From: a virus
Taxonomy: Duplodnaviria; Heunggongvirae; Uroviricota; Caudoviricetes
IMG/VR virus record: IMGVR_UViG_3300020718_000011
Coordinates: 1-64,000 of that record
DNA: 64,000 nt
Reading direction: 5' to 3' (one strand)
A model generated the notes under the pieces. The model was not told the DNA's origin. It was given only the letters and a program-made list of their open reading frames with translations, and did not search any database. Of this stretch, positions 151-59,520 are shown piece after piece. A program made the translations under genes and the position numbers. The number at the start of each line of letters is the position of its first letter. Position 1 is the stretch's first letter.

Positions 151-208
151 TGCACTTGGTCATTAATTTGGTCGATTTTAAGCATAAAATTTAAACACCA
201 AAATTGAC
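151..208. repeat. intergenic element copy 1 (TTGGTCGATTTTAAGCAT family)
   Basis: cacttggtcattaatttggtcgattttaagcataaaatttaaacaccaaaatt; related copies at about 39005-39048 and 59471-59520. Confidence 0.55.
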
Positions 209-276
209 TTTAATCATTACATATTATATCACTTTTTTGGTATGTTATTGAGCAAGTATTTTAACCATTTTTAAAT

Positions 277-531
277 ATGTTTAATATTATTTTTCTTGGG
301 CTTTTTATAGTATCATGTATTTCTATATTTCTAATACCAAAAAAATTAATAGAAAAGATTGATAATTTATTGTCACCTAAGTATTATATTTCAATAAAGG
401 ATGAGATTAAGATGGGTAAGATAAAGGATTATGAAATTCATCTAAAAAATGATCTGGATCCTCTTCCATTAGAAATACAAAAAAAAGGAGAGAAATTAAC
501 TAAAGCTTATCATCTACTAAAAAGGAAATAG
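277..531 (+). CDS. small membrane protein, KLTKAxxLLKRK C-tail family
   Basis: 84-aa ORF; N-terminal TM helix; C-terminus GEKLTKAYHLLKRK matches the tail motif shared by about 10 ORFs in this window. Confidence 0.45.
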   Translation: MFNIIFLGLFIVSCISIFLIPKKLIEKIDNLLSPKYYISIKDEIKMGKIKDYEIHLKNDLDPLPLEIQKKGEKLTKAYHLLKRK

Positions 532-532
532 A

Positions 533-832
533 ATGTTTGATGAAATAGAAGATATAGATAGGGCAATATCAAAATTGAGGGATAGAGAAGCCGATTTATT
601 TATTCAATTGGACAAGGAGAGAAAAAGGAATATGTCCAATAAGGATCCCATAGAGGAAAAGATGGCCCGTGAAATGAAACTCCAGATGGATGCCGGTGCT
701 ATAATTTATGCTATCTCTGGATATGAAGAATCCAAACGTTACATATTAAAGAATCGTGCTCTTCGGAGATGGCTCTATTGTATTGTTGGTTTATCAATAC
801 TTGGTTTATATGTAATCATAAAACATTTATAG
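533..832 (+). CDS. hypothetical protein with C-terminal TM segment
   Basis: 99-aa ORF starting 1 nt after the previous stop; coiled-coil-like N-terminus and hydrophobic C-terminus. Confidence 0.4.
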   Translation: MFDEIEDIDRAISKLRDREADLFIQLDKERKRNMSNKDPIEEKMAREMKLQMDAGAIIYAISGYEESKRYILKNRALRRWLYCIVGLSILGLYVIIKHL

Positions 833-949
833 TTATGTTTTTAAATTCAACACAAGGATTACCAAATATGGGAATTTTTAATGATCTATTTATATTCTTA
901 GGAATTGTTATGATAATTTCTTATTTATGGATTAAATCAAACACTAAAA

Positions 950-1201
950 ATGGGAATGAAAAAGAAAACACCAGCGGAGGAATCGAATGATACAAAAATT
1001 TTGAGTGCAATACCAATGACTCTTCATGAGTTTCATTTGGAGCAATTTCCCAATAATGTGATGATTAGTCAGCCATTCACACACGGATACAAGGTCACTT
1101 ATGCAGATGGGTATATTTCATGGTGTCCAAAAGATATTTATAATCGTTTAAATCAAACTAATGAAAAAGCAAATGTTTCTCTTCCTACTACTCTTGCTTA
1201 G
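950..1201 (+). CDS. hypothetical protein
   Basis: 83-aa ORF in the plus-strand block; overlaps neighbouring ORFs, so start and reality are uncertain. Confidence 0.3.
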   Translation: MGMKKKTPAEESNDTKILSAIPMTLHEFHLEQFPNNVMISQPFTHGYKVTYADGYISWCPKDIYNRLNQTNEKANVSLPTTLA

Positions 1202-1442
1202 TGGATGTAGTGGTGAATTAGATCCAAGCAAGGATTGGAGAATATCCAAAAAAACTATTTATACCGAATACGTAAGTCAGTTGGGATTATCTTCTTATAA
1301 GGTTACTGATGGTACCAATTCAGAGATTTTTGATGACTCCACCTATAAATACCATGTAGGAGATACTATTGGGCATCATAAATTTATTCCTGAACCTACT
1401 GTTGATAGCTCGAGGCGGGACAGTTTGAAACTATTAAAATAA
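1161..1442 (+). CDS. putative lipoprotein
   Basis: N-terminus MKKQMFLFLLLLLSGCSG is a signal peptide with an L-S-G-C lipobox. Confidence 0.4.
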   Translation: MKKQMFLFLLLLLSGCSGELDPSKDWRISKKTIYTEYVSQLGLSSYKVTDGTNSEIFDDSTYKYHVGDTIGHHKFIPEPTVDSSRRDSLKLLK

Positions 1443-1449
1443 TCCGGAT

Positions 1450-1611
1450 ATGAAATTACTAATCACAATAGTCTTAATCCTAGCTATTATATTTTCGGTA
1501 ATACAAATTATCGTAACTATTAATTGCTTCAGGAATAAATGGTCACAAAACTTTTTTGCCCTGATAATGGCAGCAATTTTTTGGGGTATATTTTACTACC
1601 TCAAAAGTTAA
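1450..1611 (+). CDS. small membrane protein (53 aa, below ORF-track cutoff)
   Basis: Read by hand: ATG..TAA ORF encoding two hydrophobic helices (MKLLITIVLILAIIFSVIQIIV...), in otherwise ORF-free DNA. Confidence 0.3.
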   Translation: MKLLITIVLILAIIFSVIQIIVTINCFRNKWSQNFFALIMAAIFWGIFYYLKS

Positions 1612-1823
1612 ATAGATATTTTATGTTTGGAATGTTAATGCGTCCCTCTGCCGCCACTGAAGAGGAATATGAAAAAATTTGGCAGTAGTCAAATTTCTGG
1701 ACTGGTGAGGATTTCCGAGGTTTCTATAACAAATATATTACCGCATCTCAACATGTTATTGAGTGCGCCAAAATATATTGTATTAAGAACTGGGAGAAAA
1801 TAACAGACTGGACTGATCTGGAT

Positions 1824-4866: not shown

Positions 4867-4885
4867 GTATTTATCTTTTATATTT

Positions 4886-4940
4886 TCTTTAACATTTAGT
4901 ATTTTTTTTGTCAAAGACTTTTTATTATATTTGTATGTTT
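4886..4940 (+). promoter_or_regulatory. class-A phage promoter (TCTTTAACA...TATATTTG)
   Basis: ttctttaacatttagtattttttttgtcaaagactttttattatatttgtatg; -7 box TATATTTG = Bacteroidota TAnnTTTG; about 15 nt before ATG 4955. Confidence 0.6.
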
Positions 4941-4954
4941 AAAAAATGTATTAA

Positions 4955-8655: not shown

Positions 8656-9255
8656 CTAGTTAATCCTATTACTCTTTTTAATATTATCAATTTTCCATAA
8701 TGGTTGAAAATTACTATAATGATTTAATTTAATAAGATCCTCTTCATTTAAAGCCGAACTAATAGGTATTATATGATCATATTCCCATTCACCATAATTA
8801 TTCCATGACATCCCATCCACGAATTTATTCTCTATCCATATTTTAAATTCTTTATACGAACAACCCAAGATTCTATATGTTTTTGATGTTTTTGTATATC
8901 CTTGATTTTTAATAGCATTTCTTATAAGATTTCTAATGTTACTACTCATTTTAAAAATAGGATCAATATTTCGTTTTTCGTTCACATAATTGTTTCTCTT
9001 TTTTCTAATTTTTGTTAGCTCTATTTCAGATTTTTTAATTGAACTTTTATCTTTAATTTTTACTTTTTCTCTATAATAATTTTTTGCATATTCGTTTAGT
9101 TTTTTTCTGTTATTTTTACTATATTGATTAGAATAATTTTTCCTTCTCCCTAACTCTTCGGGGTCCTTATGAGTTTCTAAATATAATTTAGTTCTATTAG
9201 AGATAGTTTCCTTGTTCTTTTTATAATATTCCTTATAATATTCTTTCCTATCCAT
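8656..9255 (-). CDS. HNH homing endonuclease
   Basis: C-terminal ILGCSY..W..DHIIPISSA...NHYSNFQPLW..DN..KSN His-Me finger motifs; Lys/Tyr-rich YYKEYYKKNKE N-terminal repeats. Confidence 0.8.
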   Translation of the reverse strand: MDRKEYYKEYYKKNKETISNRTKLYLETHKDPEELGRRKNYSNQYSKNNRKKLNEYAKNYYREKVKIKDKSSIKKSEIELTKIRKKRNNYVNEKRNIDPIFKMSSNIRNLIRNAIKNQGYTKTSKTYRILGCSYKEFKIWIENKFVDGMSWNNYGEWEYDHIIPISSALNEEDLIKLNHYSNFQPLWKIDNIKKSNRIN

Positions 9256-9268: not shown

Positions 9269-9291
9269 AATAGCTTTTAAGATTTTATATA

Positions 9292-9346
9292 ATCTTTAAC
9301 ATTTAGTATTTTTTTATTCAAAAACAATTTATTACTTTTGTCTTAT
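9292..9346 (+). promoter_or_regulatory. class-A phage promoter
   Basis: atctttaacatttagtatttttttattcaaaaacaatttattacttttgtcttata; -7 box TACTTTTG; drives 9359. Confidence 0.6.
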
Positions 9347-9358
9347 AAATTTTAATCA

Positions 9359-13484: not shown

Positions 13485-13784
13485 ATGCGTACCGAAGAAG
13501 AAATAAAGGTGAAGCTGATCTCTCTTAGAGAGGTTGCTCATGATATACAGAAGAGAAGCGATAAACTATTTAGGGAAATGAGTGAAGGTCTTGGTCATCT
13601 GCCAATGGAAAGATTAGAATCCATTAATGAAGAAATTGGCATGATGAGGAATAGAGCTTTTGAACTTTTGGCAAACGCACGAGCCATGAAATGGTGTCTT
13701 GGTGAAATTGACGATATTGATTTCGCGATGAATACCGCTGCTGGAATCATAGAAAACGCACAGGATGGCTTTGATACTTTATAA
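13485..13784 (+). CDS. hypothetical protein
   Basis: 99-aa ORF. Confidence 0.4.
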   Translation: MRTEEEIKVKLISLREVAHDIQKRSDKLFREMSEGLGHLPMERLESINEEIGMMRNRAFELLANARAMKWCLGEIDDIDFAMNTAAGIIENAQDGFDTL

Positions 13785-13785
13785 A

Positions 13786-13845
13786 TTCTTTAACACTTGG
13801 AATTTTTTTATTCAAGAACAATTTATTACATTTGTCTTATATAAA
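13786..13845 (+). promoter_or_regulatory. class-A phage promoter
   Basis: ttctttaacacttggaatttttttattcaagaacaatttattacatttgtcttatat; TACATTTG; drives 13851. Confidence 0.6.
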
Positions 13846-16259: not shown

Positions 16260-16622
16260 ATGAAAATTCTAAAATTGGCTGCATTGACAGCTATAGCCGT
16301 AAATGGCTCGAACACAGCAATCCCTGAATGGGCAAAAGAAAGTATTTGGGATCTTACAACAGAAGGTTATATAGCCCCACGGGTTATTGCTGCTGTTTCG
16401 GTAGATCCCCCGGGATACGTAGTAACAGAAAAAGGGCAGAAGCTGGTATCTATGTTGGAGGCATGTTCTGACTATTTCGGGGTGCACCAGGATCTAAAAG
16501 AGGGTGCAGCAGAAGCATACTCCGCAGCCAAAGAGGATACAGGAAAAATTATTAACGAGGGAAAGAAGAAGTTTAACAGTATGTTGGATTTTCTGAAAAT
16601 TCCATTACATGAAGAAAAATGA
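16260..16622 (+). CDS. putative secreted protein
   Basis: N-terminal MKILKLAALTAIAVNGSNTA signal-like segment; TGA/ATG coupling to rtcB. Confidence 0.45.
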   Translation: MKILKLAALTAIAVNGSNTAIPEWAKESIWDLTTEGYIAPRVIAAVSVDPPGYVVTEKGQKLVSMLEACSDYFGVHQDLKEGAAEAYSAAKEDTGKIINEGKKKFNSMLDFLKIPLHEEK

Positions 16623-41343: not shown

Positions 41344-41346
41344 CTA

Positions 41347-43048: not shown

Positions 43049-43049
43049 A

Positions 43050-43313: not shown

Positions 43314-43321
43314 TTTTATAA

Positions 43322-43378
43322 TTTTTTTAACATTTGTAATTTTTTTAGTCAGATAATTTTGTTTATATTTGTATGAAC
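43322..43378 (+). promoter_or_regulatory. class-A phage promoter
   Basis: ttttttaacatttgtaatttttttagtcagataattttgtttatatttgtatgaa; drives 43398. Confidence 0.55.
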
Positions 43379-43397
43379 ATTAAATTTATAAAAAACT

Positions 43398-43775
43398 ATG
43401 AGCGATCCAAAAAACAAAAGGTCCAGCATTGGTTACTCTAAAGCGGACGACAAAATTATCAAGGAGCACGTAGCTGCTAATCCTGGTAACAAACAGGCAG
43501 CATTCAAATCCGCTGCCGCTATAATTGCCCGGAAATGGACGTCGATAAGCGCCCATTACTATGCACAGTTAGTAAAAAGTAAGAAGAACAAACCAAATGC
43601 TACATCAATTCCCACCCTAACAACTACACACGAACCCCAGGTACGTGTTATCCGAAGGGCTAAAAAGGGATACCCCGAACAGGAGATTGACCTCGGTGAG
43701 GTAGCTCTTTCCCTAATAATCCCAAAACTCAGCCAAAAGGCCAAGGCATCGCTTATCCGTAAGCTCCTGGCCTAA
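43398..43775 (+). CDS. basic hypothetical protein
   Basis: 125 aa, Lys/Ala-rich; preceded by promoter 43322-43378. Confidence 0.45.
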   Translation: MSDPKNKRSSIGYSKADDKIIKEHVAANPGNKQAAFKSAAAIIARKWTSISAHYYAQLVKSKKNKPNATSIPTLTTTHEPQVRVIRRAKKGYPEQEIDLGEVALSLIIPKLSQKAKASLIRKLLA

Positions 43776-43863
43776 TTAGTACTGAGCCTCTAAATAATGG
43801 AGTTCCCTAAAAAGGCTCCATTATTTAGTGTAAATGTATATGGGTTTCATCATATATACTTAT

Positions 43864-44541
43864 ATGAAGAACCTACTATTACTATTTGGGTTTATATTCC
43901 TAAGCCTGATAGCTTGCTCGTCCAAAAGAAGCTTTACGAAAGCAGTTCAAAAATCAACAAATTCGGTAGTAAGAGTAGTAGTCTATCTTCGAAATCCAAA
44001 TAACGATTCATTACAGGTTTACAAAATAGGATCAGCAATAGTAATCAAGAAGGAAGGATATATTGTTACCTGTAATCATATTATAGAATGTGCAGATAGT
44101 ATATTAGTGATAGCTAAATCTGATACACTAACTGCAAAAATAGTAAATCATAATCCTAAATTAGATATAGCTCTTCTAAAAGTTCATCAAGTCTCAAACT
44201 TGATCCCTATTAATATAGGAACTTCTAAATATTTAGAAGTCGGAGAACCAATTTTAAATATTGGATATCCTCTTTACTTAGGTAAAACAGTTACTTCCGG
44301 AATTGTTAGTGCAAGAATGAAATACCCAGATACTACTGTAGTTAATATGACTTATATCCAAACAGATGCAGTACTCAACCCCGGTAATTCTGGAGGAGCA
44401 CTTGTTAATATTGATGGAGAGTTAGTAGGAATAAATGGTATGCTCGTATCAATGACAGGATACTACATTGGATATTCCTTTGCAATTCCTATTGATGAAG
44501 TTCTTCCTACTTTAAATAAATGGATAGAGAAGGATAAGTAA
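43864..44541 (+). CDS. trypsin-like (S1) serine protease, lipoprotein
   Basis: MKNLLLLFGFIFLSLIACSS signal/lipobox; TCNHII..(His), DIALLKV (Asp), NPGNSGGALVN (Ser) catalytic-triad motifs in S1/HtrA order; start trimmed from 43834. Confidence 0.75.
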   Translation: MKNLLLLFGFIFLSLIACSSKRSFTKAVQKSTNSVVRVVVYLRNPNNDSLQVYKIGSAIVIKKEGYIVTCNHIIECADSILVIAKSDTLTAKIVNHNPKLDIALLKVHQVSNLIPINIGTSKYLEVGEPILNIGYPLYLGKTVTSGIVSARMKYPDTTVVNMTYIQTDAVLNPGNSGGALVNIDGELVGINGMLVSMTGYYIGYSFAIPIDEVLPTLNKWIEKDK

Positions 44542-44739
44542 CTTAAAGTGATTCCCTTAGAGCTTTAACTACTGCCTGTGTATGGGCTATTGTCTTTAAT
44601 CTCTTTACTTGATTGCTCCTATTTGGTTTTGGTGATTTGGGTGCCTTCTTTGCTTTTGCCATTGGATAAAATAATATTAGGCTATTTATCCTGATATTGC
44701 CTTGTTATTATTTTTACCATTCTATATACTAATTATATT

Positions 44740-45540
44740 TTAAAAAATTCCTTCTGGGTCTTCATCATCAGGAAGCCTATTGTCTAAATTCATAATTCGT
44801 AGATTCTCCTGATTCTTTAGTTCAATTCTTTCTGCTCTAGATAATACAACAGGACTATTCCTTTTCATTAAGTTTGCAGCAGCTGATAATTTTTTAGCTC
44901 TTTGAACATTCAATTTATTAAGTTCGGATGGTAATATTTTATTTTGGTCTATTAATTCCTTAAAAATAACTTCATAATTAATTAGAACCCCTGAATCTAT
45001 CATCTTTTTAATTGGACCTATCGCCATATCAGCGGAGTCAGGAAGTAACCAAATAAGTATATTTTTCGAAATTGGATTATCCCAAAATATTTTTTGGGAT
45101 AATAAATCTATAAATCCTATACCATTTTCTTTCATTGCAGTAATCTTATTCCTGTTATAGGTTCTTTTATTTTCATATCCATAAGCTACATTAGGATCAT
45201 TATCATTCTTAACCTTATTTAATTCAACTGCCGCCTGGTAGTAAACAAATTTACGAATACTAGTATTCCAATCATCTAAGGTTTCCATTTTAAGCCCATT
45301 AAGAATAATATACCTATCCTCTATTCTACCCTTCTTAGGGTAAAAAATATAAGTTCTTCCCATCAAATTTTCGTCTTTATGAAAAAATTCTACCTTTCTA
45401 GCACCAGAACCAGTCTCCTTATAAGGGACAAATCTCATTTCAAAACCTTTCCATACATCTTTCATGGCTGGAAGATTATTAAGTTGTTCGATAGTAGGAA
45501 TACTATCCCAATTTTCCGTTAATGGTATTAAATGTTTCAT
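44740..45540 (-). CDS. MKxL family-like protein with C-terminal extension
   Basis: Internal start gives MKHLIPLTENW; QRAKKLSAAANLMKRN tail motif followed by a 40-aa extension. Confidence 0.45.
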   Translation of the reverse strand: MKHLIPLTENWDSIPTIEQLNNLPAMKDVWKGFEMRFVPYKETGSGARKVEFFHKDENLMGRTYIFYPKKGRIEDRYIILNGLKMETLDDWNTSIRKFVYYQAAVELNKVKNDNDPNVAYGYENKRTYNRNKITAMKENGIGFIDLLSQKIFWDNPISKNILIWLLPDSADMAIGPIKKMIDSGVLINYEVIFKELIDQNKILPSELNKLNVQRAKKLSAAANLMKRNSPVVLSRAERIELKNQENLRIMNLDNRLPDDEDPEGIF

Positions 45541-45620
45541 ATATGAGGACATTTCAGTCCATTTAATTATATTCTATAAAGTAAGATACCTATCAAAATG
45601 GTTATAGGTTATTAAAAAAC

Positions 45621-46559
45621 TTATTTTCTCCTTAGTAGATGGAATGCCTTTGTTAATTTTTTTGCCCGTATCATATCATCACCATAGAACTTAACCTTTG
45701 GATATTCCTTTAACATCTCTATATAATCACAAAGGATACCATTCCTAATACCTTTATCGAAAAGATCCTGTAAATTAATACCCATTTTAATTAAGTCCTG
45801 TTCATTGTTACCAAGATCCGGTAACATCTTAAGCATAACACTATAGTATATTTCTACTATATCTTTAGGCCTATTAACCAATTGGATTAATTCTTCCTTT
45901 CTTTTTCCCAATTGGATTAAAGAATAAGTAATACTTCCATGATTTTTCTTTACGAATTCTTCCATATTAGATATAACTATTGGTCGTATACTATCTAATA
46001 AGACCTTTTTATCTATTCCAATGAATCCAACGATGTCATCCAACTTCATTTTAACCTGTCTTGGCCCATCTCTTACTATAATAATCTTCGTATACCCTTC
46101 AAAGTATCCAAGGAAAATGGGATTTAATGATTCTAATAATTCCTCTTTTGTAAATCCAAGAGTAATAAATCCATTGATATGATCTCCCAATGCTACTAGA
46201 CCGGCATGGGTATTAATTACCATCTGGGCATATTGTACAAGACTTGTTGTTACAAGCCCTTTAATTTTTTCTACCAATTCTCTTTCGGCAAAACCTAAAC
46301 TAATATATTCATTTTCCTTATTTTTTAAGGAATCTATTTTTTCGCCGTTGATAATAACGCTTTTGGCTTCCTTTGCAAAATCATTAAATACTAAATCCCT
46401 GATACCAGATAGTAATTTATCCCTATTAGCCCCATTTTTAATATAACCATTAATTTTTGCACGAAGAAGGCCGATCTTACCAAGGCCATTTGTGGTCTTA
46501 AAGAAGCTACGCAACTCATCAACATAGTCTATATCTTTATAGAACTTCAAATTCTTCAT
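45621..46559 (-). CDS. MKxLK / KLTKAxxLLRRK family protein with internal repeats
   Basis: N-terminus MKNLKFYKDIDY; C-terminus DDMIRAKKLTKAFHLLRRK; internal GFTKEELLESL.. repeats shared with 47579-48385. Confidence 0.55.
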   Translation of the reverse strand: MKNLKFYKDIDYVDELRSFFKTTNGLGKIGLLRAKINGYIKNGANRDKLLSGIRDLVFNDFAKEAKSVIINGEKIDSLKNKENEYISLGFAERELVEKIKGLVTTSLVQYAQMVINTHAGLVALGDHINGFITLGFTKEELLESLNPIFLGYFEGYTKIIIVRDGPRQVKMKLDDIVGFIGIDKKVLLDSIRPIVISNMEEFVKKNHGSITYSLIQLGKRKEELIQLVNRPKDIVEIYYSVMLKMLPDLGNNEQDLIKMGINLQDLFDKGIRNGILCDYIEMLKEYPKVKFYGDDMIRAKKLTKAFHLLRRK

Positions 46560-46580
46560 TACTCTATTTATCCATTATGT

Positions 46581-47075
46581 TTAGTGCAATATATGTAGTA
46601 AAATTGCTAATAGAAGAAGAGAAGAAAGCATACCCAGGGCAAACCAAATAAATTTGGCCAATCGTGGAGTTTTTTTATCCTCTACCTTGATGAGATCACT
46701 ATTTTTAGCATTGATATATTTTTCTAGCGTTTCCTGGTTAACCCCTGCCTTAAGAAGTAATTCCTTTTGAGTTATTAATGAGTTAACAATATCTCTGGAT
46801 ATTACTAGTTGATCCTCGTACTCCTTTTTTGCATAGGTGTATAGAGACTCAATTTTATTGGAAATTTTTCCGAGATCCCTACCCAATTCCTCCAGGTTTT
46901 TGCTATCTAATGGATTAGATTCTTGGAGATTCCAATCGGTTCCATAAGTATTCTTTTCTACTTGAGAAACTAGGGTACCAAGGAATTTTTCTACCTCTTC
47001 TTTGGAATTAAAGTTTCTCGTGATACTTAATTTTAACATGGTATCAGTAAATTTTGATGTTAACAATGAAAACAT
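46581..47075 (-). CDS. tail-anchored coiled-coil membrane protein
   Basis: 164 aa; C-terminal TM helix FIWFALGMLSSLLLLAILLHIL; canonical minus-strand promoter upstream. Confidence 0.45.
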   Translation of the reverse strand: MFSLLTSKFTDTMLKLSITRNFNSKEEVEKFLGTLVSQVEKNTYGTDWNLQESNPLDSKNLEELGRDLGKISNKIESLYTYAKKEYEDQLVISRDIVNSLITQKELLLKAGVNQETLEKYINAKNSDLIKVEDKKTPRLAKFIWFALGMLSSLLLLAILLHILH

Positions 47076-47079
47076 TTAA

Positions 47080-47135
47080 TAATATACAAATGTAATGAAT
47101 TGTTTTGACATAAAAAAATACCAAAAGTTAAAGAT
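47080..47135 (-). promoter_or_regulatory. class-A phage promoter on minus strand
   Basis: Reverse complement reads ctttaacttttggtatttttttatgtcaaaacaattcattacatttgtatatta; drives 47075 and probably 46559. Confidence 0.55.
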
Positions 47136-47282
47136 TTTATAAAGTAGCTTTAATTTATATAAACGATAAAATAGAATATCCATCTATTCCCGAAATTTTA
47201 TAGCAATAAAAAGCAAAGGAAATAGAACGTCTCTTGGTCTTTAAAACCTCTCCTGTTTCTGGATTAAATAAATCTAATGTGC

Positions 47283-47582
47283 TCACATTAAAATCATATT
47301 TACGTCCAATATATCCGGAATTTTTTGTTTGCTAACGGTTGTAAAAATTCTAATCACATCATATGGTTTAATTCCTTCATCAAATTCTGCAACAAAATAT
47401 CTATCATTTTGATACAAAACATTAAACATAAAGGAACCCTTCCCTTCAAAATGTTTTATAATATAAGGAAGTAAGTCCTCCGGAATGCTTGAATTTGTGG
47501 TAGATATCATGATATAATTACCAAGACTAAATAGTGCTTTAGTCCAATCACTTAATTGTTCATATATCTTTAGATACTTCAT
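47283..47582 (-). CDS. small protein with family N-terminal motif only
   Basis: MKYLKIYEQLSDW N-terminus but no LLKRK tail; ATGA-coupled to the upstream gene. Confidence 0.4.
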   Translation of the reverse strand: MKYLKIYEQLSDWTKALFSLGNYIMISTTNSSIPEDLLPYIIKHFEGKGSFMFNVLYQNDRYFVAEFDEGIKPYDVIRIFTTVSKQKIPDILDVNMILM

Positions 47583-48385
47583 TTTCTTTTTAGTAATTTG
47601 TATGCCTTGGTTAATTTGTTTGCTTTGTCCAATTCCTCTGGAGTAATTTCAATAGAAGGATATTTAGCTAACAATTCTTTGTAATCCATCAAAAACCCTT
47701 TCCTTATTCCACCTATAATAATATACTCTGACTTATCTATAATATCCTTCCTGTATTGTGGTAGTTTTAGGTATTCATCAAATAGGATATCATAAAAAGA
47801 ATCCATTAATCTATTTGGAGTATTAACTAATTCTAATAATTCACCCAATTTCCTTTTAATATACACAAATGGAGAAATTGAATTAATCATCATCTTAATA
47901 TACCTATCCATTCCTTCTATGACCAAATCCTCTATTAATCCCTTTAGATGTGATCCTTCTATACCAAGATCTTTATTCCAAGAATTAATTTTTAACTTGA
48001 CGTAAAAAGGTCCATTTGAACCTTTTAACATCATATTAGTGTAATCTATAAATCCTTGATCTATAATAGGTATTGCTCTGGTTATTAATTCATCTCCATT
48101 AAATCCAAGATTTATAAAATCATCCAATTTATTTTTTATAAATCTAGTATTGTCAGTCGATCCAATCATCATCTTGACATATTTTTCGAACCACTCTAGA
48201 ACTATATCATGAATACTGTCCAATAGATCTTCTTTTGGTATTCCAGCTTCTATGAAAATTTCCATATTTTGTTTAATGTATTTACTCGCATTGCTAGAAC
48301 CTATAAACATCCTGGTATATCTTATAAATTCTTGTATTCGTGGGTCTTCTGGATTGAAAGTCTCAAATATCTGGATATATTTCAT
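47579..48385 (-). CDS. MKxLK / KLTKAYKLLKRK family protein with internal repeats
   Basis: N-terminus MKYIQIFETF; C-terminus EELDKANKLTKAYKLLKRK; three internal Y..MMIGS..FIK.KL..F..LGF..EL repeats. Confidence 0.55.
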   Translation of the reverse strand: MKYIQIFETFNPEDPRIQEFIRYTRMFIGSSNASKYIKQNMEIFIEAGIPKEDLLDSIHDIVLEWFEKYVKMMIGSTDNTRFIKNKLDDFINLGFNGDELITRAIPIIDQGFIDYTNMMLKGSNGPFYVKLKINSWNKDLGIEGSHLKGLIEDLVIEGMDRYIKMMINSISPFVYIKRKLGELLELVNTPNRLMDSFYDILFDEYLKLPQYRKDIIDKSEYIIIGGIRKGFLMDYKELLAKYPSIEITPEELDKANKLTKAYKLLKRK

Positions 48386-51177: not shown

Positions 51178-51795
51178 CTATATAATTTTATTACTCTTTT
51201 TTAAATTATCTAATTTCCATAATGGTTGTAGATTTGTATAATGGTTTAATTTAATAACCTCTTCGAATGTTGTCGCACTATCTAATGGTATTATGTGGTC
51301 TATATGCCATTTTCCATAATTTTCTATAGTCATTCCATCTACAAATTTAGATTTAATATACTCTACGAAAAATTCAGGTGTACAACCTAATATATCAAAT
51401 GTCTTACTTTCTTTAACTAATCCTTTCCTCTTAAAAGAACCATATACTAAGTTTCTAGTATTGGCTTTAAATTTATACAATGGGTCAATTTTCATTCTGT
51501 TCTTACGGTACTCTTTCATTTCTTCCTTTACTTCAGAATATGGCTTTCTCTTTTTTGGTTTAATCTTATAGTATTCGTTTTGCTTTTTATTAAGTTCTTT
51601 TCTCTTTTCTGGTTCCTTTCTATTTTCTAGTATACTCCCTTTATTTTTTAGATAGTAACTATTAGACTCTTCCTTTATCTTATCCTCATTCTTTTTGTAA
51701 TACTCCTTTTTATATTTCCTAATTTTCTCTTTATTAAGTTCTCTATATTTTTTCTGGTACTCACTCATATTTTGAGTCTTATTGGGTTCTTTCAT
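51178..51795 (-). CDS. HNH homing endonuclease
   Basis: DPLYKF...ILGCTPE..W..DHIIPLDSA..NHYTNLQPLW..DN..KSN; KEYYKKNEDKIKEE N-terminal repeats; ATATATA box upstream. Confidence 0.8.
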   Translation of the reverse strand: MKEPNKTQNMSEYQKKYRELNKEKIRKYKKEYYKKNEDKIKEESNSYYLKNKGSILENRKEPEKRKELNKKQNEYYKIKPKKRKPYSEVKEEMKEYRKNRMKIDPLYKFKANTRNLVYGSFKRKGLVKESKTFDILGCTPEFFVEYIKSKFVDGMTIENYGKWHIDHIIPLDSATTFEEVIKLNHYTNLQPLWKLDNLKKSNKII

Positions 51796-51830: not shown

Positions 51831-51891
51831 CCTAATTTTTAGAAAACTTATTACGCATAACGAAAACGCACACAATTAAATTCCTTAACAA

Positions 51892-51950
51892 ATCTTTAAC
51901 TTAAAAAATTTTTTTATCTTGAAAACATGCTTTATATTTGCTTTATCAAT
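51892..51950 (+). promoter_or_regulatory. class-A phage promoter
   Basis: aatctttaacttaaaaaatttttttatcttgaaaacatgctttatatttgctttatca; drives 51984; this sequence block is duplicated at 56850. Confidence 0.55.
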
Positions 51951-51983
51951 TTAATTATTAACAATTAAACAAGTTTAAAAAAA

Positions 51984-52543: not shown

Positions 52544-52582
52544 AAAAGAAAAACATCAGCTTAGTGCTGGTGTTTTTCTTTT
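52544..52582. terminator. bidirectional intrinsic terminator between convergent genes
   Basis: aaaagaaaaacatcagc-ttagt-gctggtgtttttctttt: about 17-bp stem with A-rich 5' arm and U-rich 3' arm, between 51984-52526(+) and 52561-53394(-). Confidence 0.6.
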
Positions 52583-53394
52583 GTCCAATTTAATTTATTT
52601 CGTTTGCTTTGATTATCAGGAGCCCATAATGGCTGGAAATTTGTATAATGGTTCAATCTTATAATTTCTTTTTGGGTAGTAGCGGAACTAGATGGTATAA
52701 TATGATCAATTTGCCATAGATTTCTATTATCCCACGACATTCCTTCCCAAAATTGAGATTCTATATGAATTTTAAATTGTTCTATGGTACATCCTAATAT
52801 TTCTTGGGAACGTGAATTTTTACTAAATCCATTATTTTTTAGGGATTGCCTTATTAGGTTACTTGTCTCTTTAGAAAACTTAAATAAGGGATCTCTTTTT
52901 AATCTCTCTTTTATATAATTACCATTTCTTTTAGCGATGGCTTTTTTATTTTCTATATAATATTGTTTTTTATCAATGGAGACTTTATTCTTGTTTTTTA
53001 GATATTTCTCTTTATCCTTTTCTATCCTTTTCTCCTTATGTAATTGATATGATTTTTTGTTATTAGATAATATTTTCTCTTTATTTAATTGATAGAGCTC
53101 TCTTCTACGTGCTAATTTTTCTTCCCTATTTGCTTGATAGAGTTCTTTTTTACGAGTTAATTCCTTATCCTTATTTAGTTTATAATATTCTCTTTTATTG
53201 GAATTTATTTCATCCCTTTTTAATTGTCTATTTTCTCTCCTTCTTTTTAATTTCTCTCCCTTGTTTAATTTATAAAGCTCATTTCTATTAGATAATTTTT
53301 CCTCGTGTGTCATATAGTATTTTATATTAACTATATATTTAAGTTTCAACCGGGGTATGCTTGTGTTTATCCAATCCATCTTTGATCGATTCAT
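52561..53394 (-). CDS. HNH homing endonuclease
   Basis: DPLFKF..ILGCTIE..W..DHIIPSSSA..NHYTNFQPLW..DN..KRN; long Lys/Glu/Tyr repeat N-terminus; likely true start MTHEEK (about 53313), which is preceded by an ATATATA box. Confidence 0.8.
   Translation of the reverse strand: MNRSKMDWINTSIPRLKLKYIVNIKYYMTHEEKLSNRNELYKLNKGEKLKRRRENRQLKRDEINSNKREYYKLNKDKELTRKKELYQANREEKLARRRELYQLNKEKILSNNKKSYQLHKEKRIEKDKEKYLKNKNKVSIDKKQYYIENKKAIAKRNGNYIKERLKRDPLFKFSKETSNLIRQSLKNNGFSKNSRSQEILGCTIEQFKIHIESQFWEGMSWDNRNLWQIDHIIPSSSATTQKEIIRLNHYTNFQPLWAPDNQSKRNKLNWTKEKHQH
53329..53340 (-). promoter_or_regulatory. class-B ATATATA box
   Basis: Minus strand reads aaatatatagttaatataaaatactatATG before the probable internal start of HNH 52561-53394. 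Confidence 0.3.
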
Positions 53395-54921: not shown

Positions 54922-55734
54922 ATGAAAGGTTATATTTATAAAATAACAAGCCCATCTGGTAAAGTTTATATAGGTCAAACTAAAAATATTTCTAATAGGA
55001 AGAATAGTTATAAAGGATTTAATACTCCTAGCACTTCTATAAAAGCTCAAATTAAATTATATAATAGTCTTAGTAAATATGGATGGGATAATCATAAATT
55101 TGAAGTTATAGATGAATGTCAATTTTGTGGTATTAATAATTGGCTATTGGATTCTTTAGAAATTCATTGGATAAATGAATATGATAGTTTTAATAATGGA
55201 TTAAACTGTACTAAAGGTGGATCTGGCCAGTGCGGACATAAACATTCAATAGAAGCTAAACTAAAAATGGGTAACTCAATGAAGGGAAGGGTTATGTCAG
55301 AGCAAACTAAACAAAAAATAAGTAATTCAAACAAAGGAATACTTATTCACACAAAAAGAAAACCTCTTTCTGATGAGACCAAACAAAGAATAAGTAATTC
55401 AAATAAAGGAAGAACTCATGCTAAATACGAGAGAACCCCTCATTCAGAGGAAACTAAACAAAAGATGAGTAATTCTCAAAAGGGTAGGGTACCATCAGAA
55501 GAAACTAAAAAGAAAATAAGTAATTCTAAAAAAGGAACGGTATGTTCAGAAGAAACTAAACAAAAGATGAGTAATTCTCAAAAGGGTAGGGTTACATCAG
55601 AAGAAACTAAACAAAAAATAAGTAGTTCACACAAAGGAAAGAAACAAATCCCGCATTCAGAAGAAACTAAAAAGAAAATAAGTAATTCTCTTAAGTCAAA
55701 GAAAACTAATTTGAATAATCTACTTCTATTCTAA
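54922..55734 (+). CDS. GIY-YIG homing endonuclease with NUMOD3-like repeats
   Basis: MKGYIYKITSPSGKVYIGQT (GIY-YIG), KYGWDNHKFEVI, NGLNCTKGG; about 7 repeated SEETKQKISNS(N/Q)KG(R) modules; ATATATA box upstream. Confidence 0.8.
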   Translation: MKGYIYKITSPSGKVYIGQTKNISNRKNSYKGFNTPSTSIKAQIKLYNSLSKYGWDNHKFEVIDECQFCGINNWLLDSLEIHWINEYDSFNNGLNCTKGGSGQCGHKHSIEAKLKMGNSMKGRVMSEQTKQKISNSNKGILIHTKRKPLSDETKQRISNSNKGRTHAKYERTPHSEETKQKMSNSQKGRVPSEETKKKISNSKKGTVCSEETKQKMSNSQKGRVTSEETKQKISSSHKGKKQIPHSEETKKKISNSLKSKKTNLNNLLLF

Positions 55735-56344: not shown

Positions 56345-56443
56345 TTTTAAGAAAGAATTTAATATAACGTAAATATACATAAAATATTTTAAGGTTAAAA
56401 ATCAATAGCTGTAATATTTTGTTAAAGAAATTATTTATACACA

Positions 56444-56625
56444 TTAACAACTCCCTAACAATTTATTCAAAAACTATTGTTTATTATTCGCGCTCGTGCG
56501 CCCACCCGCGCGAGGAGAATTTCGCAGAGGCACCCCCGCGCATGATATTACAATGAGTTTAAAAGCTTTAACAACTCCCTAACAATTTATTCAAAAACTA
56601 TTGTTTATTATTCACACGAGCGTAC
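56444..56625. repeat. two 47-bp perfect direct repeats, each abutting a GC-rich quasi-palindrome
   Basis: TTAACAACTCCCTAACAATTTATTCAAAAACTATTGTTTATTATTC at 56444-56490 and 56568-56614; followed by gcgctcgtgcgcccacccgcgcg and, inverted, cacgagcgtacgcgcacgc. Confidence 0.7.
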
Positions 56626-56701
56626 GCGCACGCACTTTTTTATATTTATATCAAAAATTCAAAGAGTTTACACAAAGAGTTGGGTCTCTACTCTTTTAAT
56701 T

Positions 56702-56775
56702 TTCTTTAACATTACCTTAACAACATTTATTTTTTTATTTTGAAACGATTCTTTAAATTTGCTTCAACAATTTAA
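56702..56775 (+). promoter_or_regulatory. class-A phage promoter (upstream copy of a tandem pair)
   Basis: ttctttaacattaccttaacaacatttatttttttattttgaaacgattctttaaatttgcttcaaca; TAAATTTG box. Confidence 0.45.
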
Positions 56776-56849
56776 TTATTAACAATACAAAAAATAATTA
56801 AAATGGAGTATAAAAAAACGAAACGAAACTCTATTAAATTCATTAACAA

Positions 56850-56910
56850 ATCTTTAACTTTAAAAATTTTTTTATCTTAAAACGATTTCTTAAATTTGCT
56901 TTATCAATTT
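56850..56910 (+). promoter_or_regulatory. class-A phage promoter
   Basis: atctttaactttaaaaatttttttatcttaaaacgatttcttaaatttgctttatca; drives 56940. Confidence 0.55.
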
Positions 56911-56939
56911 AATTATTAATAATCAAAAATCAAAAAAAA

Positions 56940-57653
56940 ATGAGCAACAACAAACACAGTAAAGGACGCGGCGCAGCCGGTCACACAACAGGCAGCGAGC
57001 ACACTTCTGCTGAACACACTGACACTGCAATCGACACTGCAATCGACACTGCAGAACACACTGACACCGCAACGGAAGAAACCAAAACGGAAACTACCGA
57101 GGCCAGCGCAGAACACACCGACCCCGCAACAGAAACTGCAGAACACACAGAGCCAGCACCAGAAGTGAAAGTTACTGAAACACCTGCTGCTTCTACCCTG
57201 TCTATCGTGCCAACCGCAGTGGCCAAGGAAGTACCAAAAGTTCGTCTCTTCTGGCAGAAAGCGTGCGGATCAATAAAAGAAAGCACTCTCACCCCTATCA
57301 AGGATGATGAAGTATTCGTTCGCACTGCCCACACCGTAGGTGTCATCCCTGCAGGTGCAGCAGAAGGTACTGCACCTGTTATCGAAATCGTTTACAGCAT
57401 GAAGCGCGGTAAAAGGATCTACTACACACCTTCTTCTTTCATTACCGATGCACAGCGCGTTGCAGCCGACCTGGCCACTAATACGAAGAACGCAGAAAAG
57501 GAAACCGCAGCCAAAGTAAAGGCTGATGAAAAACTGAAAAAAGAGCAGGCGAAAAAGGACGCAGCCGCAGCCGGTCCTAAGGTAGTAGCGGGAGCAACAA
57601 TAGTTGCCGCACCAGCAGCAGCCACAGAAACCGCTACCGAAGAAGTAAAATAA
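56940..57653 (+). CDS. Ala/Lys/Thr-rich protein, paralog B
   Basis: Same conserved core and AKVKADEKLKKEQAKKDAAAAGPKVVAG tail as 51984-52526, plus N-terminal AEHTDTAIDTAIDTAEHTDTA repeats; tandem promoters upstream; terminator downstream. Confidence 0.55.
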   Translation: MSNNKHSKGRGAAGHTTGSEHTSAEHTDTAIDTAIDTAEHTDTATEETKTETTEASAEHTDPATETAEHTEPAPEVKVTETPAASTLSIVPTAVAKEVPKVRLFWQKACGSIKESTLTPIKDDEVFVRTAHTVGVIPAGAAEGTAPVIEIVYSMKRGKRIYYTPSSFITDAQRVAADLATNTKNAEKETAAKVKADEKLKKEQAKKDAAAAGPKVVAGATIVAAPAAATETATEEVK

Positions 57654-57748: not shown

Positions 57749-57812
57749 GTAGCTACACATCTTAAAAAATCATATATTATTAAACACTGGACCGATGGGT
57801 TGTAGAGGGCGC

Positions 57813-58400
57813 CTACAAAATTTTATTACTTTTCCATATGTTATCAGAAGCCCATAATGGTTGAAAATTACTGTAATGGTTTAATTTAATTATCTCATCC
57901 TCGTTGGTTGCACTATCTATTGGTATGATATGGTCAAAATGCCATTTACCATAATTAGACCAATCCATTCCTTCCGTAAATTTATTCTCAATCCATATTT
58001 TAAATTCCTCATAAGAGCAGCCAAGTATTTGGTAAGTAGAGGATTTTTTCGTATAACCATTTCTACGAATACTTTGTGCTATGGTTCTTTTAATCTTTTG
58101 GTGTAATTTATAAAGTGGATCTACCTTCATTCTTTCTCTAAGACGTAATTTCCTTCTACTACTTCTCTCTTCTTTTGTTAGTGGTATTTTAGGTTCCTTT
58201 TTTGGAAGTTTTTCGTAGCATCTCTTTTTGGCAGCTACGCATTTCTCTTTATTGTTTTTATAATACTCTTTTTGGTATTCCTTCTTACTTTCCTTATTTC
58301 TTTCATACCATTCTGCCATTCCAGTCCTTTTGTGCATAATTTTTATTTTTATATATCTAATGTTTACGTCTCGAAAACCAGGAATTCTGTGTTTATACAC
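57813..58400 (-). CDS. HNH homing endonuclease
   Basis: DPLYKL..ILGCSYEEFKIW..DHIIPIDSA..NHYSNFQPLW..DN..KSN; true start probably an internal Met (MHKRTG/MAEWYER), which is preceded by an ATATATA box. Confidence 0.75.
   Translation of the reverse strand: MYKHRIPGFRDVNIRYIKIKIMHKRTGMAEWYERNKESKKEYQKEYYKNNKEKCVAAKKRCYEKLPKKEPKIPLTKEERSSRRKLRLRERMKVDPLYKLHQKIKRTIAQSIRRNGYTKKSSTYQILGCSYEEFKIWIENKFTEGMDWSNYGKWHFDHIIPIDSATNEDEIIKLNHYSNFQPLWASDNIWKSNKIL
58349..58360 (-). promoter_or_regulatory. class-B ATATATA box
   Basis: Minus strand reads agatatataaaaataaaaattATG before the internal start of HNH 57813-58400. Confidence 0.3.
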
Positions 58401-58403
58401 ATT

Positions 58404-58461
58404 CTTTAACGTTATCTTAACAAATAGTATTTCACAATACAGAAACGATTTGTTATATTTG
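58404..58461 (+). promoter_or_regulatory. class-A phage promoter with no downstream protein gene
   Basis: ttctttaacgttatcttaacaaatagtatttcacaatacagaaacgatttgttatatttg; TATATTTG; about 190 nt later an intrinsic terminator, no substantial ORF. Confidence 0.45.
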
Positions 58462-58464
58462 CTT

Positions 58465-58661
58465 TTTAATAATAATTATTTAAGCGTACCTAAATTGTTT
58501 GACTATGATAAGGAATAAAGGTTCTCCATAAGTAGTAACTTATTTATTATATTATATTTAGATTATGTCCGAAGACCGAATAAGTCCAGAGTAGGAAAAG
58601 ATTAATTTAGTTTGAGAATGGCAGGATAGAATTAGTTACTATTCTGCCATTTTTGTTTTTT
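58465..58661 (+). ncRNA. candidate about 190-nt non-coding transcript (promoter to terminator, no ORF)
   Basis: Class-A promoter 58404-58461 followed by only tiny ORFs (under 12 codons) and the strong terminator at 58617-58661. Confidence 0.3.
58617..58661 (+). terminator. plus-strand intrinsic terminator
   Basis: tggcaggatag-aattagtta-ctattctgcca: 11-bp stem (one G.U), then TTTTTGTTTTTT; overlaps the 3' end of minus-strand GIY-YIG gene. Confidence 0.6.
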
Positions 58662-59330
58662 AGAGTGAGCTATCTTTAATGAATTACTCATCTTTTGTTT
58701 GGCTTCAGGAGTATTAAATTTTTCCTTCATCATAAGTTTTAATTTTAACTTATGCTCATCAGATAATGGTTTTCTTTTAGCCCTATTATTACCTTCCCTA
58801 ATTTTTTGTTTAGTCTCTTCAGATATAGGATTTCTAGTTTTACCCTTTAATGAGATGGATATTTTCTTCTTAGTTTCATCCGTAACAAATTTACGTTTAT
58901 CTATTTTTGGTTGATCTATTTTAGCCTTAGCTATTTTTGGTTTACTATCTCTATCTTTTATTAATCCCAATAAATTTCTATTTTTATTTCCTTTTAATGA
59001 ATTGGATATTTTTATTTTCATCTCTTCGGATATACTAGTAGTTCCACCACCTCCTTCCGTACAATTTAATCCATCCTTAAATGAGTTAAATTTAGAAATC
59101 CAGTATATCTCTCTTTCAAAAAGTATAGGGTCCTTATTATTATCCAATGTGAGTTCTTCTATTACTTCTTTAGTATGATTCTCCCATCCATATTTATTTA
59201 CGGACCAATATAATTTATGTTGTTTCCTATCAACTCCATATTTATATCTTTCGTTTATACTATTTTTAGTTGTACACCCTATATAAATACGTCCGGTTGG
59301 GCTAGTAATTTTATAGATAAGTCCTTTCAT
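58632..59330 (-). CDS. GIY-YIG homing endonuclease with NUMOD3-like repeats
   Basis: MKGLIYKITSPTGRIYIGCT, KYGWENHTKEVIEEL, DGLNCTEGGGG; repeated SEEMKIKISNSLKG / TDETKKKISISLKG / SEETKQKIREGN modules. Confidence 0.8.
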   Translation of the reverse strand: MKGLIYKITSPTGRIYIGCTTKNSINERYKYGVDRKQHKLYWSVNKYGWENHTKEVIEELTLDNNKDPILFEREIYWISKFNSFKDGLNCTEGGGGTTSISEEMKIKISNSLKGNKNRNLLGLIKDRDSKPKIAKAKIDQPKIDKRKFVTDETKKKISISLKGKTRNPISEETKQKIREGNNRAKRKPLSDEHKLKLKLMMKEKFNTPEAKQKMSNSLKIAHSKKQKWQNSN

Positions 59331-59332
59331 GT

Positions 59333-59345
59333 TACTATATATTGC
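59333..59345 (-). promoter_or_regulatory. class-B ATATATA box
   Basis: Minus strand reads caatatatagtaacATG before GIY-YIG 59330. Confidence 0.3.
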
Positions 59346-59470
59346 TCTTACTTATACATCATTGCCTGGGTGTTAAGTAGATAACAATTTTAGCAGAGTT
59401 TTTCATTTTAGTTCCAGCTATTAATACATATTTGTTTTTCTTATATTACTCAACAAAATGCCCTATAATA

Positions 59471-59520
59471 ATCACTTTGGTATATCACTTTGGTCGATTT
59501 TAAGGCATATTTAAAGCGAC
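59471..59520. repeat. intergenic element copy 3
   Basis: tcactttggtatatcactttggtcgattttaaggcatatttaaagcgaccag; arms tttggtcg/cgaccag. Confidence 0.55.

Follow-up and report, generated by a model that had tools for sequence, protein, structure and literature searches.

The window, by which we mean the whole stretch of 64,000 nucleotides that was analyzed, is an accessory region with many homing endonucleases and small ORFs and one insertion sequence, and it carries three copies of a short repeated element, all of them on the + strand (Table 1). Copy 1 lies within a + strand operon, 11 nt past the stop codon of a DUF1937 gene, and the next + gene starts approximately 50 nt further on without a class-A promoter in between. 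Copy 2 is antisense between two - strand genes according to independent gene calls, and copy 3 occupies a divergent gap with a NUMOD3 homing-endonuclease gene on its left and a class-A promoter on its right. The original prediction placed all copies at the boundaries of transcription blocks, which is correct for copy 3 and not for copy 1, which is internal to an operon, or for copy 2, which has a - strand gene on either side.

Table 1 Positions of the three element copies, their parts and neighboring features in the window.
Feature	Position	Strand	Details
Copy 1, whole unit	143-245	+	Profile match 145-225, E = 4.6e-15
Copy 1, upstream half		+	TATTAT 146-151; upstream TTGG 156-159; 16-mer 167-182; variable 15 nt 183-197
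Copy 1, invariant 16-mer	167-182	+	Supplies the 5' arms of both the outer and the inner helix
Copy 1, downstream half		+	CCAAA inverted arm 198-202; TTTAAT 209-214; second TATTAT 222-227; downstream TTGG 237-240
Copy 2, whole unit	38981-39085	+	Upstream TTGG 38998-39001; 16-mer 39010-39025; CCAAA 39041-39045
Copy 2, 3' part		+	TTTAAT 39052-39057; ATTA 39065-39068; GGGAGAAGAAATAGG 39069-39083
IS1595 40-nt inverted repeats	41334-41373, 42288-42327		Resident insertion sequence
NUMOD3 homing-endonuclease gene	58632-59330	-	Left of copy 3
Copy 3, whole unit	59464-59563	+	Upstream CACTTTGG 59474-59481; 16-mer 59489-59504
Copy 3, invariant 16-mer	59489-59504	+	Next letters GCAT, not CAT
Copy 3, 3' part		+	CGACCAG inverted arm 59518-59524; TATAAT 59531-59536
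Class-A promoter	59610-59678	+	Right of copy 3

The exact 16-mer TTTGGTCGATTTTAAG is present in all three copies. An 18-mer search allowing up to 3 mismatches returned exactly three sites in the window, against 0.08 expected from shuffled sequences (0 of 100 shuffles reached three), and a profile made from 16 homologues scored the window copies at E values from 3e-12 to 2e-16 and found no fourth copy in the window or in the 10 kb on either side. It is clear from these results that the three copies are true members of a non-coding element of approximately 60-100 bases. The 18-mer TTGGTCGATTTTAAGCAT, thought to be common to all copies, is exact in copies 1 and 2 only, as copy 3 reads ...AAGGCAT. 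Outside the fixed motifs the window copies are just 36-47% identical to one another, which is near the AT-rich background.

All copies have a fixed layout, in which a TGG located 12-13 nt upstream is followed by the 16-mer, 15 nt, the inverted arm CCA(A/G)A, 6 nt and T(T/A)TAAT. Distances between the core and the TGG ahead of it (12-13 nt) and between the core and the inverted CCAAA (28 nt) are kept in 16 of 16 distinct copies, an additional TGG is found about 69 nt downstream in most of these, and the distance from the 16-mer to TTAAT shows zero indels in the entire set. This holds even though the 15-nt stretch enclosed by the arms has several variable positions and includes A and T runs, and the flanking intergenic DNA of orthologous loci contains many indels. 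A short motif repeated at fixed spacing, as in a multi-site operator or an iteron-type site, is thus what the element contains. In a second palindrome, TTAAT...ATTAA, the spacer varies from 6 to 8 nt, and the inner arms are not alike in all groups of copies but change in a hairpin-like manner. The inverted arms of the original prediction are found in every window copy, with TTTGG(TC) paired with (GA)CCA(A/G)A. The upstream half-repeat, a TGG 12-13 nt before the core, is a property of all three copies and not of copies 1 and 3 alone.

A search of related phages recovered 13 more distinct copies in metagenomic contigs, making 16 with the window copies, and the exact-pattern searches by which these relatives were recruited account in part for the constancy of the 16-mer and CCA in them. 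The element is often the sole DNA that can be aligned between the window and the related contigs, and the proteins beside it in those relatives are 40-76% identical to those of the window, or unrelated. Where the neighboring proteins are 42-76% identical, blastn aligns nothing but the element, at 79-91% identity. When the neighbors were compared across loci, no protein family was found to recur beside the element. Orthologous positions are retained across very divergent genomes, suggesting function rather than mere mobility; the expectation that the element is conserved was borne out, and it has the appearance of something functional. Genes of the window were also found on contigs of 140 kb and 474 kb, so that its source is a huge phage. 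The element is conserved within a limited set of huge phages from freshwater, none of them cultivated, which probably infect Bacteroidota.

All four arrangements of the neighboring strands occur. The right-hand gene runs opposite to the element in 9 of 14 loci, the left-hand gene is mostly on the + strand, and the copies designated copy 2, L032/L044 and L074 are antisense to both neighbors. One contig of 108 kb carries two copies in opposite orientations. The orientation of the element is independent of that of the flanking genes.

Several known classes of elements could be rejected. The promoters of the phage are of the Bacteroidota type, and all strong class-A promoters in the window carry a TAnnTTTG box. 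A Bacteroidota primary-sigma promoter was defined by this box (-7) at a fixed position and TTTG near -33; among the 16 copies no TAnnTTTG was found at a shared + strand position, and on the - strand it was present, at +39, in 3 of 16 only. Together with the opposite-strand right-hand genes this rejects the class, and confirms that the copies are not class-A promoters, since neither strand has such a box at a constant position. Intrinsic terminators resemble the element in having a hairpin, which is followed by a T-rich run in some copies, and the element is often located just after a + strand ORF. For an intrinsic terminator we demanded a G+C-rich uninterrupted stem, a short loop and a T run 0-2 nt past the stem, whereas the stems found here are A+T-rich and interrupted, the T run is non-adjacent (beginning 2-6 nt after the stem) or absent in most copies, and it is the sequence rather than the structure that is conserved. 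A terminator scan of positions 30000-48000 did not predict copy 2, and in L059, L061 and L077 a canonical G+C-rich terminator is present next to the element as a distinct feature. A terminator acting in sense at the end of a transcription unit is excluded by the copies mentioned above that are antisense to local transcription, and by the location of copy 1.

Neither is the element the end of an insertion sequence or a MITE, as the inverted repeats of the resident IS1595 are unrelated to it and no variable direct repeats were found to flank its copies. A CRISPR repeat is rejected by a single unrelated match among 185,579 species-representative genomes. A - strand micro-ORF (MLKIDQ...) loses its start codon or frame in copy 3, L032 and L082, its length ranges from 11 to 123 aa, its mismatches fall on the three codon positions as 2/3/2, 4/4/2 and 3/3/2 with no concentration at the third, and indels disrupt the frame, so that a coding sequence is rejected too. 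Rfam gave nothing at gathering score in the whole window, with chance-level matches only around copy 2 (E >= 4, 12-15 bits against cut-offs of 36-75), and the element has no tRNA match, so that it belongs neither to an Rfam family nor to the tRNAs. No base pair changes on both sides either (see below).

The arms were originally thought to differ between copies by compensatory changes, which would indicate a conserved secondary structure. The first part of this claim fails, as the 5' arm is part of the 16-mer, which does not vary, and the variation is confined to the 3' arm. Extending the structure alignment to the further copies gave an RNAalifold consensus of -2.4 kcal/mol in which none of the six pairs is compensatory, and neither these six nor the 13 pairs that we named contain a single two-sided change, a test which is weak because the search pattern had fixed the 5' arm. 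What survives of the second part is a conserved potential: a two-helix hairpin of 13 pairs, with the stems TTTGG/CCAAA enclosing a 24-nt interior, can pair in 91% of the alignment cells, compared with 34-63% when the 3' partners are slid. The potential is slightly better on the + strand, where several of the pairs are G-U (A-C in the - strand equivalents) and where the folding energy is below that of the - strand in 15 of 16 copies (mean z -1.7 versus -1.1). Copy 3 is the most stable of the window copies (-14.3 kcal/mol, z = -3.5) and belongs with L065, L070 and L074 to the 5 of 16 copies with z < -3, whereas z is above -1 in about 7 of 16 and copy 2 (z = +0.8), like about half of all copies, folds no better than its shuffles.

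Of the two readings first put forward, an RNA element and a protein-binding site, neither is decisively favored by the data. The hairpin data agree with an RNA element read from the + strand, an imperfect hairpin of two helices with a U-rich stretch after it. Within transcripts it would be an attenuator (intercistronic or in a 3'-UTR), a signal for processing or stability, or a protein operator, or else it would be a small RNA made from its own unrecognized promoter. A + strand ORF ends 22-47 nt ahead of the 16-mer at many loci, a T5-6 run follows a few nucleotides past the stem in several copies, and copy 1 is located within a + strand operon. We nevertheless regard this reading, a main rival of the protein site proposed below and held with only slightly less confidence, as somewhat unlikely. 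Besides the missing covariation, the copies that fold like shuffles and the lack of an Rfam match, there is neither a + strand gene nor a recognizable promoter upstream of copy 3, L032/L044 and L063, a canonical terminator separates the upstream gene from the element in L059, and a terminator downstream is inconsistently present. The length of the "loop" is also constant, which is unusual for an RNA hairpin.

Our best explanation, put forward tentatively, is that the element is a lineage-specific cis-acting site for a sequence-specific protein that acts on DNA. Such a protein, probably encoded by the phage, would read the 16-mer plus three equally spaced flanking motifs, namely the TGG upstream, the inverted CCAAA and TTAAT, and it would act on the DNA itself, whatever the direction in which the neighboring genes are transcribed; the candidate site may serve a global regulator or a protein of replication or genome organization. 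This reading is suggested by the invariant spacing from the 16-mer to TTAAT in 16 copies and the half-sites repeated at fixed distances, by an orientation unrelated to the neighbors, by the strong constraint seen in the blastn alignments, by the absent covariation and the weak or absent folding signal in half of the copies, and by the absence of a fixed host-type promoter box and of Rfam or tRNA matches. Protein binding, double-stranded DNA as the target and the process downstream are all proposed with low confidence. Half-site spacings (13 and 28-29 bp) that do not amount to whole helical turns count against a protein site, as do inverted arms that are widely separated for a simple dimer. A purely double-stranded site does not predict the self-complementary sequence between the arms or the better + strand hairpin either, and the variable spacer and hairpin-like inner-arm differences of the second palindrome also speak against it. 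Pfam analysis of the window proteins revealed no obvious DNA-binding, ParB or Rep protein, and neither the window nor the set of neighboring genes offered a candidate for the binding protein.

At the KorB operators of IncP plasmids and the scattered partition sites of phage N15, a known protein of the ParB family binds compact perfect palindromes of 13-16 bp. Like the element, these are inverted-repeat sites of few copies, intergenic and scattered irrespective of gene orientation. The element differs from them by arms 28-29 bp apart, an asymmetric core and no ParB-like gene seen.

Another known kind of module, the PeSLs (promoter-early stem-loops) of T4-type phages, combines a terminator with a recognizable host early promoter (PMC2839356, PMC4122927). 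PeSLs and the element are alike in being short, conserved and intergenic, and in residing where large phage genomes are plastic and accessory. Each includes a stem-loop, which in the element is a possible one, is better conserved than the flanking genes and stands beside unrelated genes in related phages. The element could be a mobile regulatory cassette, a remnant or variant of a terminator-plus-promoter module, the main evolutionary effect of which would be to offer homology for the exchange of gene cassettes in hyperplastic regions. The accessory nature of the window fits this, as does copy 2, which over approximately 105 nt is 88-91% identical (blastn) to L032, L047, L044 and L061 with unrelated flanks; outside the searched bases it is 80-84% identical to L032, L044 and L061 and just 75% identical to the syntenic copy in L066. 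Genes adjoining the element in L061, L060 and L074 also have homologues elsewhere in the window, and the class-A promoters of these phages show the same pattern of conserved DNA beside unrelated genes. We find a cassette of this kind, the other main rival of a protein site, unlikely, since PeSLs are numerous and co-oriented with genes, whereas the element has no host-type promoter, is present in three copies in ~84 kb (compared with at least 10 class-A promoters), does not track its flanking genes and keeps its orthologous positions in very divergent genomes.

The rigid distance from the 16-mer to the near-invariant TTAAT is also a promoter-like architecture, and the element may be a non-canonical rightward promoter in which an activator or sigma factor of the phage, or an RNA-guided factor, targets the 16-mer and T(T/A)TAAT resembles a -10 box. 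A + gene begins approximately 100-113 nt after the 16-mer in copy 1, L082, L065 and L070, a sub-group in which a conserved 19-nt block precedes that gene, and copy 1 heads a 3.8-kb run of + genes without a class-A promoter of their own. The opposite-strand right-hand gene at most loci makes this quite unlikely, as does the lack of the TAnnTTTG box or a sigma-70-type hexamer pair at a fixed place, and we saw no gene for a sigma factor or an RNA polymerase among those of the window.

It is distinctly improbable that the element is a type of strand-specific nucleic-acid signal as yet undescribed in large double-stranded DNA phages, a reading of which we see two versions. The element could be the conserved target of an RNA- or factor-guided transcription system that needs no promoter, in analogy with the dCas12f-sigmaE systems of Bacteroidota, where transcripts begin about 46 bp beyond a conserved target (PMC13472631). 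The end of TTAAT lies about 45 nt past the GG of the core. Or a single-stranded DNA hairpin of the + strand could recruit the priming or replication machinery of the phage at several sites in a genome of about half a megabase.

REP/BIME palindromes and the subterminal hairpins of IS200/IS605-type elements share with the element an extragenic location, an imperfectly palindromic and conserved sequence, and G-T pairing that differs between the strands. The copies of the element are very few, no associated tyrosine transposase was found, and its positions are stable across divergent genomes. A strand-specific single-stranded replication hairpin, either a signal for priming or helicase loading that resembles the ssi sites of plasmids or a REP-like element for a tyrosine/HUH enzyme, would explain why folding favors the + strand, why transcription direction is irrelevant and why the three window copies are identically oriented, and a gene with a BT4734-like primase domain is located 1.7 kb upstream of copy 1 and its orthologues. 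It is very unlikely all the same, as the stems are weak, neither a Y1 nor a HUH enzyme turned up in the window, the 108-kb contig has its two copies in opposite orientations, and we are aware of no such case among large double-stranded DNA phages.

To our knowledge, huge phages of uncultivated Bacteroidota are known almost solely through their protein genes. No DNA in these genomes evolves more slowly than the element and the class-A promoters, which are therefore direct handles on how expression or replication is organized. The invariant 16-nt core may be used as bait for the partner protein or RNA, and as a metagenome marker for this phage lineage. If the element should be a recombination linker only, the idea of cassette shuffling by PeSLs would reach beyond T4-type phages to a group of phages that is very different.

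Three copies of a non-coding intergenic element are found in the window, all on the + strand and at the three sites of the original prediction. They have an exact 16-mer core, TTTGGTCGATTTTAAG, in common, while the 18-mer initially proposed for all of them is matched exactly by copies 1 and 2, copy 3 reading TTGGTCGATTTTAAGGCAT. With up to three mismatches the 18-mer occurs at these three window sites only (0.08 expected), and none of 100 shuffles reached three. The common layout is TGG, the 16-mer, 15 variable nucleotides, CCA(A/G)A, 6 nt and T(T/A)TAAT, where the upstream TGG lies 12-13 nt 5' of the core, the spacer between the core and CCA(A/G)A is exactly 15 nt in each copy, and CCA(A/G)A is the inverted partner of TTTGG. 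A tandem half-duplication previously assigned to copies 1 and 3 is real and corresponds to this upstream TGG, which all three copies possess. Outside the shared motifs the identity is only 36-47%. A profile scan of the window and 10 kb on each side (approximately 84 kb) returned the three copies and no more, and neither TTTGGTC as a sub-motif nor TATTAT-N2-9-TTGG was significantly commoner across the window than in shuffles. GC skew tracks gene orientation and gives no signal at the elements. One Logan contig, a single observation, terminates at the upstream TTGG of copy 1.

Positions of the element copies and of other features in the window
Feature	Position	Strand	Remarks
Element copy 1	143-245	+	within a run of + strand genes, 11 nt past a DUF1937 stop codon (independent gene calls)
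Element copy 2	38981-39085	+	antisense to two - strand genes, in the 435-nt gap that separates them (independent gene calls)
Element copy 3	59464-59563	+	flanked by the NUMOD3 endonuclease gene (-) and by a class-A promoter (+) (independent gene calls)
Core 16-mer	167-182, 39010-39025, 59489-59504	+	
Class-A promoters	4874-4945, 9280-9349, 13773-13844, 21905-21972, 31828-31902, 43313-43382, 59610-59678, 60032-60103	+	
Class-A promoter	47148-47080	-	
Weaker class-A copies	48429, 51084, 54854 (-), 56716, 56850, 58398		
Intergenic repeats, families D14 and D8	56434-56489, 56558-56613 (93% identical), 63088-63143		
Intergenic repeats, families D14 and D8	51859-51982, 56680-56803, 56817-56940		
IS1595-family insertion sequence	41334-42327		~1 kb, apparently intact, inside the phage genome
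IS1595 transposase gene	41390-42286		
IS1595 terminal inverted repeats	41334-41373 and 42288-42327		40 nt, 80% complementary
GIY-YIG gene	54922-55734	+	seven or eight tandem NUMOD3 repeats, 51-nt period, 55246-55704
NUMOD3-only relative	58632-59330	-	adjoins copy 3
Four homing-endonuclease-like paralogues	8656-9255, 51178-51795, 52561-53394, 57813-58400	-	
Hydrophobic 30-codon ORF (MILINIIYILSGISFSTWFMKEAIYDQFGK)	~38870-38962	+	ends 47 nt before copy 2
RNA-repair/translation-rescue type Pfam matches	16619-17836 and neighbours		RtcB ligase, 'Swiss Army Knife' RNA repair HAD domain, peptidyl-tRNA hydrolase PTH2, HD domains
Three largest proteins	23657-29506	-	500, 608 and 577 aa; without a match in PHROG or, above the curated cut-off, in Pfam

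A search of related phages, proposed along with the original prediction, was made by exact-pattern scans and yielded 13 distinct homologous copies from four IMG/VR contigs and lake metagenome contigs, giving 16 with the window copies. Because these relatives were required to carry the 16-mer (and in one scan also CCA), the fact that those bases do not vary outside the window is built in and partly an artefact; searching with neighbouring proteins recovered no further copies, and searches with the downstream blocks or the loop sequence returned known loci or chance matches only. The scans did not demand the upstream G, the AAT of TTAAT or several inter-arm positions, yet these too are conserved. 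In most related contigs no DNA other than the element can be aligned with the window. Copy 2 is matched at 88-91% over approximately 105 nt in contigs where the adjoining genes are unrelated, and copy 1 has orthologues in two contigs (L082 and L070) behind the same genes (a BT4734-like primase domain and a 236-aa protein), where the proteins are 42-76% identical as against 79-85% for the element DNA. Being often the only alignable DNA, 79-91% identical beside diverged or unrelated genes, the element is under strong constraint. Copies from other genomes are closer to each window copy than the remaining two window copies are.

The + strand run around copy 1 begins 2.5 kb upstream, at a class-A promoter, and extends 3.8 kb past the element. 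Over all loci every combination of neighbour orientations occurs, with 9 of 14 right neighbours on the opposite strand, and no protein family recurs beside the element at the loci compared.

Several established identities were rejected. A host-type promoter is not indicated, as no TAnnTTTG box stands at a shared fixed position on either strand, and a sigma-70-type scan gave fewer promoter-like sites than shuffles did (84 vs 90.9). No tRNA, tmRNA or Rfam family was found. The element is not coding: on the + strand the reading frames differ between copies, and a - strand ORF ('MLKIDQ...'), which begins at the CAT following the core, has lost its start codon or its frame in three of the copies, ranges from 11 to 123 codons and lacks third-position bias. 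The inverted repeats of the resident IS1595 are unrelated to the element, which is therefore neither an IS1595 end nor a MITE. Nor does it qualify as a canonical terminator; ordinary G+C-rich terminators stand separately beside it in three of the contigs compared (L059, L061 and L077). A host CRISPR-like repeat was dismissed since the element is absent from representative bacterial genomes, the one bacterial-genome match being unrelated. The 16-mer is also present in an unrelated viral contig, L018 (IMGVR_UViG_3300032038_001210, 240-400), among five GGTCGATTTT and several TGTGACAC repeats just upstream of the gene for a 940-aa protein, which resembles, by eye, a fusion of a primase/helicase with a DNA polymerase, and the repeat arrangement looks like an iteron-type origin. 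We treat this match as chance because approximately 45 other unrelated 15-mer matches were found.

Changes in the inverted arms had been described as compensatory, but across the 16 copies the covariation argument fails, as the changes are one-sided and opposite an invariant arm. RNAalifold retained six outer pairs only (TTTGGT/ACCAAA) at -2.4 kcal/mol with 0 compensatory pairs. A fuller hairpin, consisting of the outer helix and an inner helix of GATTTTA with T(G/A)AAATT, is paired in 91% of cells vs 34-63% with the 3' partners slid; no pair is changed on both sides, and the shuffle control is therefore uninformative. Copy 3 folds at -14.3 kcal/mol (z = -3.5) and copy 1 at -9.5 (z = -1.6), whereas copy 2 folds no better than shuffles (z = +0.8). 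The mean z for the 16 copies is -1.7 on the + strand vs -1.1 on the - strand, and the + strand fold is the more stable one in 15 of them, because several pairs are G-U. Downstream lies a second palindrome, in which TTAAT pairs with ATTA(A) over 6-8 nt; in two copy groups its inner arms differ yet are complementary (TAAT-GAT/ATC-ATTA vs TAAT-ATC/GAT-ATTA), and the copy 1 and copy 2 groups retain just four pairs. Hairpin potential has been retained, with a slight strand bias. A + strand hairpin acting as RNA would account for the self-complementary interior, the G-U asymmetry and the second palindrome with its variable spacer, but it would need unexplained transcription in about one third of the contexts, and we regard it as doubtful.

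Among the 50,697 deposited phage records there was no DNA or protein match to the first 8 kb, a 608-aa protein or the element itself. The window belongs to a huge phage, since identical proteins recur on two contigs 140,088 and 473,921 bp long, the longer one being ERZ27271905 k141_26427. A ribosomal protein L12 domain gene (PF00542) is located approximately 9 kb left of the window start (L083/L084, 10 kb left). The gene content includes GIY-YIG/NUMOD3 and HNH-like homing endonucleases, the IS1595 element, RtcB and other RNA-repair genes, and further Pfam matches are to CoaE, Mu Gam, an SPFH/Band-7 protein and a trypsin-like protease. Free-standing homing-endonuclease-like genes are dense, and in one of the four paralogues there is a weak match to HNH (E = 0.009, short of the curated cut-off); they are inserted antisense between + strand genes. 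In a blastn comparison the IS1595 transposase had no counterpart in the syntenic relative L066, in which the 30-codon ORF, absent from the source annotation, is conserved at the protein level; it may encode a small membrane peptide. In its mosaic flanks and its location in an accessory region the element is reminiscent of the PeSL cassettes of T4-type phages (PMC4122927), and on these two points a PeSL-like cassette would be conceivable, if unlikely.

The class-A promoters, a separate family with at least 10 copies in the window, are approximately 70 nt long and consist of a conserved upstream block (TTTATAnnnTCTTTAACA...), an A/T run and, at the end, a -7 box TAnnTTTG 12-20 nt before the start codon. 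Their DNA is 80-87% conserved in related contigs carrying unrelated genes, and the D14/D8 repeats at 51892, 56716, 56850 and 63125 score as weak variants of them. Primary-sigma promoters of Bacteroidota have TAnnTTTG as their -7 box, from which we infer a Bacteroidota host. That the element itself is a non-canonical rightward promoter would match its geometry and the copy 1 group but does not fit the majority of contexts, making this quite improbable. Least weight of all is given to a + strand hairpin in replication-phase single-stranded DNA, which would share the structural features cited for an RNA hairpin.

It is clear that the element is real, conserved and lineage-specific, and unlike catalogued promoters, terminators and RNA families. 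Tentatively we put first the reading that it would be a site on the DNA read by a sequence-specific protein, as its rigid spacing without any indel, its repeated half-sites and its indifference to the direction of transcription would fit such a site.
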